Positions 9,683 through 38,420 of a DNA stretch of 64,000 bases are shown in pieces. The stretch lies in IMG/VR virus record IMGVR_UViG_3300037010_001838; one strand, written 5' to 3'. The position numbers and the translations under genes are program-made. How positions within the stretch are numbered: the first letter of the stretch is position 1; each line of letters starts with the position of its first letter. The notes beneath the pieces are model-generated. The model was given only the letters and a program-made list of their open reading frames with translations. It did not search any database and was not told the DNA's origin. This DNA is from a virus. Taxonomy: Duplodnaviria; Caudoviricetes.

Positions 9683-9942
9683 TATTTTGGGTTATATTAG
9701 GAATTTTAATATACACAGGATTAAACATTTGGTGGTTTTTAAGTATGATGGGATATAAATTTCGTAAAGGTGAATGTACAGATTGGATTTTTGGTTTTCC
9801 AACATATGTAATCGCATGCTGTTTTGGTCTTTATTATAAGATAAGAGAGAAAAATAATATGTTACTTAATTTGTTCCCTTTTGATCCAGCGAAACAAGCT
9901 GGAAGATATGCTGGAACACCAAAACCAACAGGATGTGTATAG
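9676..9942 (+). CDS. small membrane protein
   Basis: Two hydrophobic segments. Confidence 0.45.
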   Translation: MTIFWVILGILIYTGLNIWWFLSMMGYKFRKGECTDWIFGFPTYVIACCFGLYYKIREKNNMLLNLFPFDPAKQAGRYAGTPKPTGCV

Positions 9943-24299: not shown

Positions 24300-24509
24300 A
24301 TGAAAGTTTATGTAAAAGAAAATGAAAACATCGATCGCGCCATTCAACGTTTTAAGAGAGTTGTAGATCAATCTGGTTTACTCAAAGAACTTCGAGCGAG
24401 AGAATCTTATGAAAAACCAACAGTTGAACGTAAACGAAAAAAAGCGGCGGCGGTAAGCAGACAACTTCGTGAACTCCAAAAACACCAGTTAATCAAAAAA
24501 TTGTATTGA
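24300..24509 (+). CDS. rpsU: 30S ribosomal protein bS21
   Basis: [16 protein letters not shown]...[26 protein letters not shown]. Confidence 0.95.
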
Positions 24510-25495: not shown

Positions 25496-26071
25496 TTGAG
25501 CGCACCGTTGATCTTAACTTTAGACACATCAGGAATGCCGCGACAGTGGGTTACGTGGCAAGATGCAATTGTTTATCATGCAAAAGGTCTTGTTGCTTGG
25601 CAACATGGCCAGAGTGACTATACCTTTATGGGTGGAACTTCACGTATGACAGGAGAACGTTCCAAAATTTCAACACAAAGCATCATTGCTGTTGATGGTA
25701 TGGACGTTGGGAAAACATGGAAAAGAGTTGCAAAGGAACCACCATTGTCAAGTAAATTAATTTTTCGTCGAGATCGCCACATCTGTGCGTACTGTGGACG
25801 TCCTTTCTCGGAAGATAGTTTAACTCGTGACCACATCATCCCCCAACGGATGCATGGAAAAGACACGTGGATGAATTTGGTATCCGCTTGCAAAAGTTGT
25901 AATCATAGGAAGGCTGACAGAACTCCTCAAGGTGCAAACATGGAATTGTTGTATGTTCCATATGTCCCCGTAAAGAGTGAATTTTTGATTCTTGCAAACA
26001 GAAAGATTCTGGCTGACCAAATGGAATATTTAATGCAGAATGTTCCAGAAACCAGTAGACTGCATAGTTAA
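25496..26071 (+). CDS. HNH endonuclease
   Basis: RDRHICAYCG, TRDHIIP, WMNLVSACKSCNHRK; TTG start after SD ggag. Confidence 0.92.
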   Translation: MSAPLILTLDTSGMPRQWVTWQDAIVYHAKGLVAWQHGQSDYTFMGGTSRMTGERSKISTQSIIAVDGMDVGKTWKRVAKEPPLSSKLIFRRDRHICAYCGRPFSEDSLTRDHIIPQRMHGKDTWMNLVSACKSCNHRKADRTPQGANMELLYVPYVPVKSEFLILANRKILADQMEYLMQNVPETSRLHS

Positions 26072-29514: not shown

Positions 29515-29536
29515 GATTTAATATATTTATACTGAA

Positions 29537-30736
29537 CTACCACTTGTCCAAAGAACAAGTGGGGTCACCCAATGGCAACGCAATTCCTGTTTCATTGATA
29601 TTAGAATCAATATCTCTGCAGGCGTAAATTCGGCTAGTTCCCAGCCTATATAATTCAGATAACCCAAATGAACGAATATTAACAGCTGCATTAATGTCTC
29701 TATCGTGTTTAACGCCACATTCACAATCCCACTCTCTATCGTTCAGAGTTAGATTGTTGTTAAGCGTTCCGCACGATGAACACATTTTAGAACTAGGGGA
29801 GTATCTATCAATTTCAACTAATATTCCACCGGTTTCAGCTAATTTATGTTGGAGTTTTGTTTTAAATAACCCCCAACTAGCGGAACTGATTGATTTAGCC
29901 AATTTCCTGTTCTGAACCATGCCTTTAATATTCAGGTCTTCCATGCAAACAACTTGATAGTTTTTGGTTATCGAACTAACAAGTTTCCATTGGAAGTCTT
30001 TTCTTTGATTTGCCACATGTCTATGTAGCTTATTTAATTTCTTCTTTGCTTTTGTTCTATTTGAGCTACCTTTCACCTTTTTTGAGAGCGATTTCTGTTT
30101 GTGTTTTAACAGCTTTTCGCTCTTTTGAAGGTGTTTTGGGTTTGAATATTTAACACCTGTGTTAAGAACAGCAAAATCTTTGATTCCGACATCAATGCCA
30201 ATAACTTCTTGTTCTGTAAAGATATTTCTAACTGGAACGTCGGGTAATTCGCAGGTAATATATCCAAACCACTTATCATCGACGCATTTAACTACTATTC
30301 GTTTTGCTTTTCCCTCAAATTCTCGCTGTTTGTTGTATTTAATTCGACCAATTTTAGGTAATTTAATGCTTCTATTGCAAATATTAAAGTGTTGTGGCAC
30401 CGCAAATGTAGCAACTGATGTGTGTTTGCTTTTAAATTTAGGAAATCCCACTGCTTTCTTATTTTTAATTTTTCTGGTGATTGCGTTGTTTAAATTAATC
30501 ACTTGTTCTTGTAGAGATTGGCTGTTTGTCTCACTTAGCCAAGGATATGTTGCCTTCAGCTCAGGCAATAACTTGCTCATTTCAAAACGAAACACAAACT
30601 GCTTGTCAGCCTCATATTTCTTAATATTTAAATCAAGCATTTGGTTCCATAACCAACGAACAGAACCACAGTGTTGTTTGAACAACACAATTTGATCTTC
30701 ATTTGGTAACAATTGAACCTCAAAGGTTTTGATCAT
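29537..30736 (-). CDS. tnpB: TnpB RNA-guided endonuclease
   Basis: HTH N-terminus; RuvC GIDVGIKDF, CMEDL, DRDINAAVNI; Zn finger CSSC...CEC. Confidence 0.95.
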   Translation of the reverse strand: MIKTFEVQLLPNEDQIVLFKQHCGSVRWLWNQMLDLNIKKYEADKQFVFRFEMSKLLPELKATYPWLSETNSQSLQEQVINLNNAITRKIKNKKAVGFPKFKSKHTSVATFAVPQHFNICNRSIKLPKIGRIKYNKQREFEGKAKRIVVKCVDDKWFGYITCELPDVPVRNIFTEQEVIGIDVGIKDFAVLNTGVKYSNPKHLQKSEKLLKHKQKSLSKKVKGSSNRTKAKKKLNKLHRHVANQRKDFQWKLVSSITKNYQVVCMEDLNIKGMVQNRKLAKSISSASWGLFKTKLQHKLAETGGILVEIDRYSPSSKMCSSCGTLNNNLTLNDREWDCECGVKHDRDINAAVNIRSFGLSELYRLGTSRIYACRDIDSNINETGIALPLGDPTCSLDKW

Positions 30737-30796
30737 AAATATTTAGCACAAGTGAATTAATTTCATATAGAGGTATTTACGCTAGATCATTCGAAG

Positions 30797-31207
30797 TTGT
30801 CCAGTAACTACAAAAGAGGTAGTCATTACAAGCATCATTTATCTATCCACTTGATTTTAACAGTAAAATATAGAAGGGATATCTTGAAGCACGTTGGTGC
30901 TGAGTTGATTGAAAAGATAAATGATATAGCAACAACGCAAAACTTTAAGGTAAAACAAGCACAACATGATAACAACCACATTCATCTACTGATTGATTTT
31001 GACCCAAAAGTATCTGTCTCCTCAATTTGTCGCAAAATCAAAGCAGAAACCACAATATGGGTTTGGGCTACACATGAGGGAACTTGTCGTAAATATTTTT
31101 GGAAACCAGGTAGAAAATTATTGTGGGCAGATGGGTATTTTGTCTGCACGACTGGAGATGCAAGTCGCGAAAAGCTGGTTGAATATGTTGCAAATCAGGG
31201 CAAATAG
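30797..31207 (+). CDS. tnpA: IS200-type Y1 (HUH) transposase
   Basis: HLILTVKYRR, NHIHLLI, LWADGYF, EYVANQ. Confidence 0.95.
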   Translation: MSSNYKRGSHYKHHLSIHLILTVKYRRDILKHVGAELIEKINDIATTQNFKVKQAQHDNNHIHLLIDFDPKVSVSSICRKIKAETTIWVWATHEGTCRKYFWKPGRKLLWADGYFVCTTGDASREKLVEYVANQGK

Positions 31208-31257
31208 CTCCTTTTCATCCATTTGTCTAAAGAACAAGTGGGATTCAGTAGATCTAA

Positions 31258-31842
31258 CTAAATTTCAATTCCTACGTTTATTAAATGGAGTTGGAGTACA
31301 ATATTGTGGGCGTAAGCAACAGAATGACTTCTTTTAAACCAAATGGCATTCTTTTTGGTTGGTGTTTTATACAACTCATCGCGAACAATATCTCTGTCTT
31401 TAATATAATCTTCTAACAAGTATTTTTTCCCAGGACGAATTAAAGCGAGAACGTCAGCCAACTCTTGGATGGACCTTGGGGCAATTCTAGAAACAACATC
31501 ATAGTGGTTCGATAAGTGAAACAGTTTACTAACAACAGATGGAATCTTCAATAAATCCCAATTTGGTTCTTTTTTCAATAACACTCTAATTTCATTCTTG
31601 TTTTCAAAATAATCAAGTAATGACAGGTGCAAGAAATCAACTTTAAAATATCCCAAGTCTTCAGCATCTTTATATGGTATAGCTGATAAACCTGTTACTT
31701 TATCTTTCGGAATTTCTTGGAAATACGTTCCAACTGGATGTCGTACAAGTTCTTCATTTTTTACCATAGAAGCAGCAACAGAAGTTTTAAAAACACTCTG
31801 TGCGTCGAATGAGGTTTGAGTATCAATATCAATATCAGGCAT
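31258..31842 (-). CDS. DnaE (Pol III alpha)-like fragment, second half of the palm
   Basis: Starts MPDIDID; RHPVG; YFKVDFLHL; ELADVLALIRPG; FKRSHSVAYA. Confidence 0.8.
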   Translation of the reverse strand: MPDIDIDTQTSFDAQSVFKTSVAASMVKNEELVRHPVGTYFQEIPKDKVTGLSAIPYKDAEDLGYFKVDFLHLSLLDYFENKNEIRVLLKKEPNWDLLKIPSVVSKLFHLSNHYDVVSRIAPRSIQELADVLALIRPGKKYLLEDYIKDRDIVRDELYKTPTKKNAIWFKRSHSVAYAHNIVLQLHLINVGIEI

Positions 31843-36893: not shown

Positions 36894-38420
36894 TTAACTA
36901 ACCTTTTTAAGTAATGAAGCTACAATTGTGTTAGTGTTGTAGACTTCATACACTAACACATCAATTGATCCAGCCGCTGTTGAAAGTGTTGGAACTGTTC
37001 CGTTTTCAAACTTCCATGTGCTTGTTGAAAAAGAAGCCATTCTACTTCCAGTTCCATCTTGAATAATATAAATGACCCCAGATTGTCCTGTTATTAGGTT
37101 TGTTGGACTGAGAATAGATACTTGTCCTGTTAAAGTTATAGAAAAGTTTCTTGAAGTTGCAAAGTCGAAAGAAATCGAAGAAGAATAAGGAACTACTAAC
37201 AAATCGTAAGGCACCCGAGATGTAATCTCTGTTGTTATTAAATTTGTAACTGATTGTAAAGCTACAGGGGTTATAGCTTTTTGTGTGTTTGTTCCGGCTA
37301 TGGCTTCACTTCCTGTCGCTAATACAACTCCACCTATCGTAGAAGTCGTTGCTTGGGGTAAAGAATAAAGTCGACTATCGACATATTGTTTTGTTGCAGC
37401 TTCCAATGGTGAAGAAGGATCTTGGCCGAGTGTCAATATAGAACCAACTGAAAAGGAAACGCTGCCATTATTACTAACAGCCAAACTACCACCAATCAAA
37501 TTAATATTCGTTGCATTGTTTAAACTAATTCCACCAGAAGAAAACACCAAAGTCCCCGTCATAGTATCACCTGTTTTGGTAACCTTTTGATCTATTTGAG
37601 ATTGAAGTCCCAGATTGCTAGATGAAAGTGAAGATGATAATGTTGATATTTGTGTATCAACATAATTCTTGTTAGCAGCATCATCGGTATTTGTTGGATC
37701 TGGAAGGTTGATAACTTTGTGTGTGTTTAACATATCAATATCACCAGTTGCATTTCCTGAAAAAATCTTAGACCAGGCAGCTCCTGTATATACATACAAC
37801 GAACCTTCAATCACGTTGAACCAAAGTTGGCCTGGAACTGGAGATGTTGGAGAGGGTGCAGAAACGATCGTTCCACCACCAGCAGAAGAAGGAACTGTTG
37901 AGGTTACAACAATCGCTGTTTGATCTGTCACCGAGCTATATGTTACCGACCCCATAGCAGATGAAATAGTGTACGTTCCAGCATTTGCTCCGCCTTGAAC
38001 TATAAACTGGCCTCCAGCTGTTAAATACGGTGTTGCGTCACCGCTTACGTAGAATGTAGACGTTCCAGTGTTTGCACCAACAATAAGGAATGTTTTAGGA
38101 GGAGGAACACCACCGGCGACAACACTCCAACTATGACTCATGTCAAAAACTTTTAATAAATTTACACTTGTGTCAAACCAAAGTTGTCCGATAGTGGGAT
38201 TTGGTGGCCAATCTGGACTTGCAAAATTTTCCAAAAGCCACAAAAAATTCTCATTTGCTCGTTGCCCATATTGAAGGAAGCCTTCGCCAAACAAATTAAG
38301 AGATGTATGAGTATTTGTGCCTGCTGGTCCATCAAAGCCACCAGGGTTTATTTGAAACGGTGCTTTTGTTGGGTCTACAGATGAATTAGTAAAATCGATT
38401 GTGTAAATAGTTCCAGCCAT
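36894..38420 (-). CDS. tail fibre protein with C-terminal adaptor domain X
   Basis: NENFLWLLENFAS...PTIGQLWF; AATKQYVD; ATTSTIGGVVLAT. Confidence 0.75.
   Translation of the reverse strand: MAGTIYTIDFTNSSVDPTKAPFQINPGGFDGPAGTNTHTSLNLFGEGFLQYGQRANENFLWLLENFASPDWPPNPTIGQLWFDTSVNLLKVFDMSHSWSVVAGGVPPPKTFLIVGANTGTSTFYVSGDATPYLTAGGQFIVQGGANAGTYTISSAMGSVTYSSVTDQTAIVVTSTVPSSAGGGTIVSAPSPTSPVPGQLWFNVIEGSLYVYTGAAWSKIFSGNATGDIDMLNTHKVINLPDPTNTDDAANKNYVDTQISTLSSSLSSSNLGLQSQIDQKVTKTGDTMTGTLVFSSGGISLNNATNINLIGGSLAVSNNGSVSFSVGSILTLGQDPSSPLEAATKQYVDSRLYSLPQATTSTIGGVVLATGSEAIAGTNTQKAITPVALQSVTNLITTEITSRVPYDLLVVPYSSSISFDFATSRNFSITLTGQVSILSPTNLITGQSGVIYIIQDGTGSRMASFSTSTWKFENGTVPTLSTAAGSIDVLVYEVYNTNTIVASLLKKVS

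Follow-up and report, generated by a model that had tools for sequence, protein, structure and literature searches.

How does an IS605-group element persist in a jumbo phage, and what would its TnpB do with a guide that begins with a phage late promoter? The element lies in the window, as we call the whole stretch of 64,000 nucleotides that was analysed, which is part of a Rak2/XacN1-like jumbo phage. We consider it on balance probable that this element, crippled in transposition, spreads between phages infecting the same cell by RNA-guided homing with late expression, a reading in which we infer the cleavage, the TAM and the expression.

Ends, target and phage setting of the element

The first-pass annotation had assigned the element to the IS605 group, and we support this assignment: both transposon genes, two hairpins, the guides and an empty allele without target duplication were found (Table 1). 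On the minus strand, the locus reads GAAAT-TTAG, TTAGATCTACTG, AATC, a 23-nt hairpin, tnpA (encoded on the plus strand), a 42-nt gap and tnpB, followed by GACC, a near-identical perfect hairpin, TAGT-TCAG and the flank TATAAATATATTAAAT. The sibling phage L001 carries the empty allele, in which GAAAT-TTAG is joined directly to TATAAATATATTAAATCTTGG; at the same site, exactly 1,726 nt are missing from contigs of the public runs X3 and X4. Since these empty alleles fix the ends, the element runs from 31257 to 29532 and its target is the first TTAG; a second TTAG, the start of the left 12-nt spacer, lies inside the element, whose first bases from 31257 are TTAGATCT.

The left junction initially proposed (TTAG followed by atctactg) was wrong by 4 nt, the true one lying further out, and the empty allele predicted from it, tagttagtataaatat, is absent, L001, X3 and X4 reading otherwise. 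The extent first given (29516-31257) takes in the 16-nt guide at 29516. The right end had been read correctly as GACC, hairpin and TCAG, with a perfect hairpin and the flank starting at 29531. A search for the empty allele in relatives found TTAG joined to TATAAATATATTAAAT in L001, X3 and X4, which is the site that had been expected in siblings free of the element.

The IS608 rule of pairing between guide and cleavage site, applied earlier to this sequence alone, holds among relatives, in which guide and target covary. On the left, AATC occurs with TTAG (window, L006 and L198) and AATG with TTAC, located 15 nt upstream (L011 and L243); L006 also has a 12-nt left spacer of similar sequence (TTAG, then TTTGATCTCACG-AATC). 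On the right, GACC occurs with TCAG, and GATG or GAAG with TCAC (L002 and L093), the exception being L186, where GACC stands with TCAA. The right guide occupies positions -35 to -32 from the element end (29566-29563), which we take to be the IS608 spacing.

Table 1. Features of the locus (positions in the window)
Feature	Position	Strand	Evidence or remark
Whole IS605-group element, 1,726 bp, without target duplication	29532..31257	-	empty alleles
Target and TAM candidate TTAG, outside the element	31258..31261	-	holds the TAG stop of the dnaE-like ORF
Left end: 12-nt spacer, guide AATC (31245-31242), 23-nt hairpin (31241-31219)	31219..31257	-	one C-A mismatch in the hairpin
Right end: guide GACC, perfect 23-nt hairpin, TAGT, end motif TCAG	29532..29566	-	
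Right flank, predicted 16-nt guide	29516..29531	-	A/T only
tnpA, Y1 HUH transposase, 142 codons	30779..31207	+	HUH and catalytic Tyr kept
tnpB, 399 aa	29537..30736	-	RuvC D182, E266, D347 and zinc-finger cysteines, invariant in the clade
Predicted omegaRNA scaffold, overlapping the tnpB 3' end	29532..29647	-	covariation
TAAATA late-promoter core, 37 nt before tnpB	30774..30779	-	complement of the tnpA start region
Second TAAATA core, 3 nt upstream of the ATG of tnpB	30740..30745	-	
ATAAATA late-promoter core, 37 nt before tnpA	30735..30741	+	overlaps the tnpB start codon
dnaE-like ORF (phrog_11778), upstream of the element	31258..31842	-	
Sigma-70 promoter TTGACA-17-TATAAT, before the dnaE-like ORF	31877-31849	-	12/12
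Downstream gene, 129 aa	29113..29502	-	promoter left intact by the insertion

The best isolate-phage matches of the dnaE-like ORF are Xanthomonas phage Xoo-sp13, Ralstonia phage RsoM2USA and XacN1 (50-53%), followed by Atu_ph07 and Rak2-like phages; the downstream gene was assigned to no family. The window also encodes 14 tRNA genes and a T4-like ssDNA-binding protein. Its closest record is a 179-kb IMG/VR contig from a sibling phage, 98.5-98.9% identical around the locus, which encodes a gp55-like late sigma factor adjoining an SbcD-like gene. A blastn comparison of the element with isolate phages gave no match. Elsewhere, the phage carries genes for ribosomal protein S21 (24300-24509, plus strand; phrog_21469, E 6e-20), for an HNH endonuclease adjoining tRNA-Ser (25496-26071, plus strand) and for a FolE2-type GTP cyclohydrolase (PF02649; 26097-27089, minus strand); phage DNA modification, if any, could affect TAM reading.

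Transposase lesions, the TnpB module and its late-promoter cores

The element had been called intact, which is right for the tnpB motifs and the RNA scaffold but not for the tnpA start and the left hairpin. The tnpA product matches Y1_Tnp (PF01797, E 9e-29) and keeps H67, H69 and Y136. Its start codon in the window, however, is ACG, in general a very poor start codon, where all six tnpA-bearing relatives have GGTATTT-ATG; the sole in-frame alternative, a TTG six codons on (30797), has no ribosome-binding site. The position of the C-A mismatch in the left hairpin is paired in L005, L006 and L187, and the left end alone folds no better than shuffled sequences (z 0.48). A second filled copy, L012, whose element has two differences from that of the window, carries both lesions, and the ACG start is common to the filled copies L012 and X2 and to an X3 piece. 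From these lesions we infer that the window copy has largely lost transposase synthesis; given the ACG start, excision and insertion catalysed by its own TnpA are doubtful. A tnpA scan of IMG/VR returned none, and none is present in the sibling and G003 records, both of which are fragments.

TnpB comprises the OrfB_IS605, TNB and HTH domains and matches the ISDra2 TnpB structure entries with an E value of 4e-62. The predicted scaffold (the last ~116 nt) is conserved in 12 relatives with 94.6% of cells paired, compared with 27-42% in slid controls, a comparison that favours this structure because it was derived from the same alignment that scores its pairing. Two-sided changes affect 14 of 28 pairs, an invariant GAAC/GTTC pairing is pseudoknot-like, and a search of Rfam gave no match at E 5. 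Both tnpB and its RNA scaffold look intact. By analogy with ISDra2 and the ISGst elements, the TAM would be TTAG, equal to the TnpA target. Likewise, ISDra2 (PMC8612924), the ISGst elements and a plasmid gene drive (PMC11870625) suggest that the omegaRNA would carry a 16-nt guide from the flank and direct cleavage.

The ATAAATA motif, reported as a late motif for Rak2-like phages and phage CBB (PMC5259590), occurs upstream of ORFs 18 times in sense and twice in antisense orientation among 90 (shuffled mean 4.2); its distance to the ATG is mostly 18-31 nt. Inside the element, the tnpA start region read on the tnpB strand is CATAAATA in relatives and CGTAAATA in the window, and CATAAATA lies on that strand 36-41 nt before tnpB in all five relatives with both genes. 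Reciprocally, the tnpB start TATTT-ATG is CATAAATA on the tnpA strand (window, L005, L007 and L009). Besides altering the tnpA start, the ATG-to-ACG change weakens that tnpB promoter which is better placed, the other core being only 3 nt from the ATG. These motifs suggest that tnpB and the omegaRNA may be expressed from late promoters. The early sigma-70 promoter before the dnaE-like ORF could read through into the element and so drive tnpB; a transcript from it would run antisense to tnpA.

Of 14 clade copies, 13 have a TAAATA core no more than 50 nt from the start of tnpB, compared with 18 of 88 AT-matched outside TnpBs (shuffled mean 1.7); the p value of 3e-7 is overstated, the 14 copies being related rather than independent events; the controls are outside TnpBs, the only kind that the metagenome scan returned. 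Five more clade proteins were called with N-terminal extensions carrying I-N-K/N/I just before the true Met, the translation of ATAAATA. In outside TnpBs, the ATG often directly follows a box of host type instead (TATAAT or the Bacteroidetes TAnnTTTG). TAAATA is also found with a few other viral TnpBs (L107, L111, L150 and L153), two of them in the sister group.

The clade comprises ~30 metagenomic TnpB clusters at 52-100% identity, after which identity drops to 44-47% (Methanosarcinales); no TnpB match from isolate phages or plasmids reaches 60%. A quick tree gave a clade of 32 rows (SH-aLRT 99) with a TCAG subclade of 9 (SH-aLRT 100). The contexts inspected are phage-like, several contigs being too short to tell; copies with longer flanks appear to lie in large phages, next to DenV, ribonucleotide reductase together with baseplate, or PhoH, or on IMG/VR contigs. 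One copy (L242:1-10914), filed under a 'Candidatus Dojkabacteria' MAG, adjoins a T4-type portal and prohead protease and is probably a phage contig binned into the MAG. A search of genome contigs for the right-end pattern gave 11 matches, none of the five inspected having this TnpB, although a search by pattern says little about absence. What is new, as judged from the sequences compared, is a TnpB clade confined to phage-like contigs with phage late-promoter cores before tnpB. Such clade-wide late promoters suggest that these elements tune their expression to the resident replicon, as T4 homing endonucleases do. A broader picture is plausible, if somewhat short of probable: a jumbo-phage IS605 lineage would have swapped host promoters for late ones, each divergent start doubling as the other's promoter (CATAAATA), TnpB would act as a reprogrammable late homing endonuclease, and the window would hold a tnpA-silenced copy in a two-allele population.

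Several related copies are incomplete or rearranged. L008:250-985 has tnpA, a CATAAATA core and the omegaRNA scaffold without tnpB, the promoter lying ~35 nt before the scaffold. L093:3890-5223, in a sibling empty at the window's site, is a clade member with a 60% TnpB, a TCAC end and a TTG start; it lacks tnpA and adjoins tRNA-Gly. The right flank of another tnpA-less relative (L094:5201-5237) resembles a tRNA 3' half, so that its predicted guide would be tRNA-like, and ARAGORN calls no tRNA there. L188:1-224 appears to be a chimera in which an L093-type left end and what is left of a decayed tnpA are combined with a tnpB and a right end of the TCAG type. The 244-kb phage G003 (L198, L203, L204, L233-L241) contains 26 GGTAGTTCA right-end motifs, compared with 4 in the control; these comprise gene-less minis of two types and ~50-nt relics with a left guide, one hairpin and a right end, the product expected from recombination between near-identical hairpins. 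In the sibling G002 (9828-9860 and 37027-37062; L213-L222), short palindromes consist of two inverted right ends (GTGAACTAC...GTAGTTCAC), one of them directly after a left end resembling that of L093.

Filled and empty alleles and their possible explanations

Run X1, which may be the source, contains the filled allele only, and X2 the filled allele linked to the left flank. In X3 and X4, long empty contigs (depths 53 and 9) occur together with short element pieces, nearly all identical to the window and not bridging the junction. The empty and filled depths are 53 versus 3-4 in X3 and 9 versus 2-3 in X4, depth not being equal to the share of cells; because the empty contig is much deeper where both alleles occur, no allele sweep is evident. 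In siblings that are 98.5-98.9% identical, the empty site has TTAG and 0/16 guide mismatches. Within 600 nt of the site, six SNPs common to the two empty strains set them apart from the filled haplotype, and the two strains are also distinct from one another, so the empty alleles of X3 and X4 do not stem from recent excision. At SNPs near the element, L012 and X2 agree with the window, but from 31720 on they agree with the empty strains (4/4 positions in L012 and 6/7 in X2). A crossover is thus placed in the interval 31409-31720, at 150-460 nt from the left end of the element; on the other side, L012 is window-like except at one site. Filled copies are seen on two flank backgrounds. The one-sided crossover is compatible with co-conversion and also with ordinary phage recombination giving mosaics.

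We propose that an IS605-group element from a Rak2/XacN1-like jumbo-phage lineage would have inserted once, by TnpA strand transfer, after the stop-overlapping TTAG, a harmless site just before the late promoter of the next gene, and that the window copy would then have largely lost transposase synthesis through the ACG start and the hairpin mismatch. A phage late promoter within the element would drive transcription of the tnpB gene and its overlapping omegaRNA. During mixed infection, the first ~16 nt of the right flank would direct TnpB to cut sibling genomes at TTAG plus TATAAATATATTAAAT, and phage recombination would copy the element in from the filled genome, which would itself escape cutting, its guide sequence being preceded by TCAG instead of TTAG. 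The cutting and copying steps are modelled on Karvelis 2021 (PMC8612924), Meers 2023 and Mears 2025 (PMC11870625). Late expression may be timed to recombination-dependent replication, by analogy with T4, whose homing endonucleases are late-promoter driven and co-convert flanks (PMC2988022). The main biochemical doubt is the 16-nt guide, whose all-A/T composition may make targeting weaker; in assays of this kind, the IS608 protein HpyTnpB showed no activity (10.1101/2023.03.14.532601).

The element may instead be a decaying passenger at a harmless site, carried by drift, whose TnpB does little owing to the poor all-A/T guide and weak expression. We regard this as unlikely but deserving serious consideration: two lesions are already fixed in the filled copies, the filled allele has the lower depth in both X3 and X4, the distal tnpB promoter is weakened, and related phages hold many tnpA-less or gene-less relics. 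Yet the lesions fall in tnpA and the left end, while tnpB retains every catalytic residue and the RNA scaffold every helix, and the two flank backgrounds also speak against mere decay; the insertion being young, tnpB intactness is weak evidence either way. The six SNPs shared by the empty strains, and the differences between these strains, speak against a purely restorative role, in which low-level TnpA (from ACG or TTG) would excise the element during replication and TnpB would re-install it, the empty alleles being partly excision products. Such a role appears improbable, although the HUH motif and Tyr of TnpA are intact, the frame is open from the TTG at 30797, ATAAATA lies 37 nt before tnpA, and a precise joint between TTAG and the flank is what excision yields. 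X1, where no empty joint was found at depth 200, speaks against it too, with the reservation that contigs drop rare variants.

The first 8 nt of the flank, TATAAATA, were rightly recognized as a late promoter, that of the next gene: the motif is enriched in the phage, and the core lies 21 nt before the ATG of ORF 29502, inside the 18-31 nt band. A function for the promoter-like guide had also been suggested, and TnpB might bind TTAG-flanked late promoters and modulate late transcription or cut them. This is very improbable, even if the guide begins with the exact late consensus and I-TevI represses its own late promoter (PMC2988022). None of the eight other TCAG/TCAA-type right flanks (L003, L008, L009, L011, L186, L187, L189 and L243) starts with TATAAATA, two starting with TATA only. 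Among the other TATAAATA sites in the window, 14 of 15 have no TTAG, and the remaining one is an 8-nt match inside a coding region with 7/16 mismatches to the guide. A scan for TTAG plus the guide, covering the 64-kb window and a 179-kb sibling fragment, gave besides the empty site only this match and one genuine TTAG-flanked late promoter in the sibling (G002:53397; 8-nt match, 4/16 mismatches). TnpB binding at the latter is possible, since dead TnpB (dTnpB) needs little seed to bind at TAM sites (10.1101/2023.03.14.532601). TTAG plus 12 nt of the guide had more than 118 matches in IMG/VR, mostly unrelated, A/T-rich and uninformative. The nuclease is intact, unlike in TldR, and the element's own promoters lack the TAM. 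Nothing suggests selection for off-target promoter binding, and a guide beginning with a promoter looks like an accident or by-product of the intergenic site, the insertion having left unharmed both the stop codon on its one side and the late promoter of the next gene on its other. Two other ideas were discarded. A preference for TATA 3' of the target fitted the first three of three tnpA-bearing flanks and was broken by ATGC, TTGC, GAGC, CGCG, GACC, TTCT and TAGT, and I-TevI-like autorepression was rejected, the element's own promoter cores having no TTAG in front.

Comparison with known systems

The element is a standard IS605-group member; its novelty is the phage-late-promoter wiring, and the promoter-guide idea adds little. 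It shares with IS608, ISDra2 and ISGst1-5 a Y1 TnpA and a TnpB, subterminal hairpins with a tetranucleotide guide 5' of each, the spacing of the right guide, insertion 3' of a 4-nt target without duplication, and an omegaRNA over the tnpB 3' end. Unlike these elements, it has a TTAG target, a TCAG end, near-identical left and right hairpins, a phage-resident clade, and a tnpA-tnpB gap that carries phage late-promoter cores in place of host sigma boxes, with a tnpA that starts with ACG in the window. The best named cellular and plasmid matches are IS605 TnpBs of Methanosarcinales (e.g., Methanomethylovorans hollandica; 44-47% identity), which have a related right-end motif, TAGTTCA, but form a separate branch in the tree and show no TAAATA enrichment.

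With its ends known, its empty allele sequenced and both alleles in the same samples, the locus is a base-exact natural test case, in which the transposase lesion separates homing from transposition. It also offers a compact TnpB with a predicted 4-nt TTAG TAM, of which the literature searched gave no description; likewise, that literature, partial in coverage, had nothing on point about a TnpB with TTAG, a late promoter or homing between co-infecting phages. The spread of TnpB into homologous replicons was shown for plasmids, phages being a theoretical case (PMC13565253). In the plasmid IS605 TnpB gene drive (Mears et al. 2025, PMC11870625; 'transposon non-restorative homing', PMC13565253), empty homologous replicons are cut, TnpA is not needed, and filled and empty copies share a cell. 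Our element may work in the same way, with a presumed cutting step, but differs from the plasmid system (PMC11870625) in residing in lytic jumbo phages with natural alleles.

Like I-TevI/II/III, SegB and MobE of T4 (PMC2988022), the element is a selfish nuclease carrier in a T4-like phage with a late promoter before the nuclease gene. The T4 homing endonucleases cleave the empty allele in co-infection and co-convert flanks (PMC2988022), and we suggest the same working here, although TnpB does not belong to their number: those enzymes are protein-guided and intron-borne or free-standing, whereas TnpB would be RNA-guided and lies inside a transposon. The TldR nuclease-dead TnpB repressors (PMC10705468) are similar in combining a TnpB-family protein with a guide matching a promoter; unlike them, the element retains an intact RuvC site (D182, E266 and D347), a guide from the cis flank and its transposon ends, and its promoter match is not conserved.
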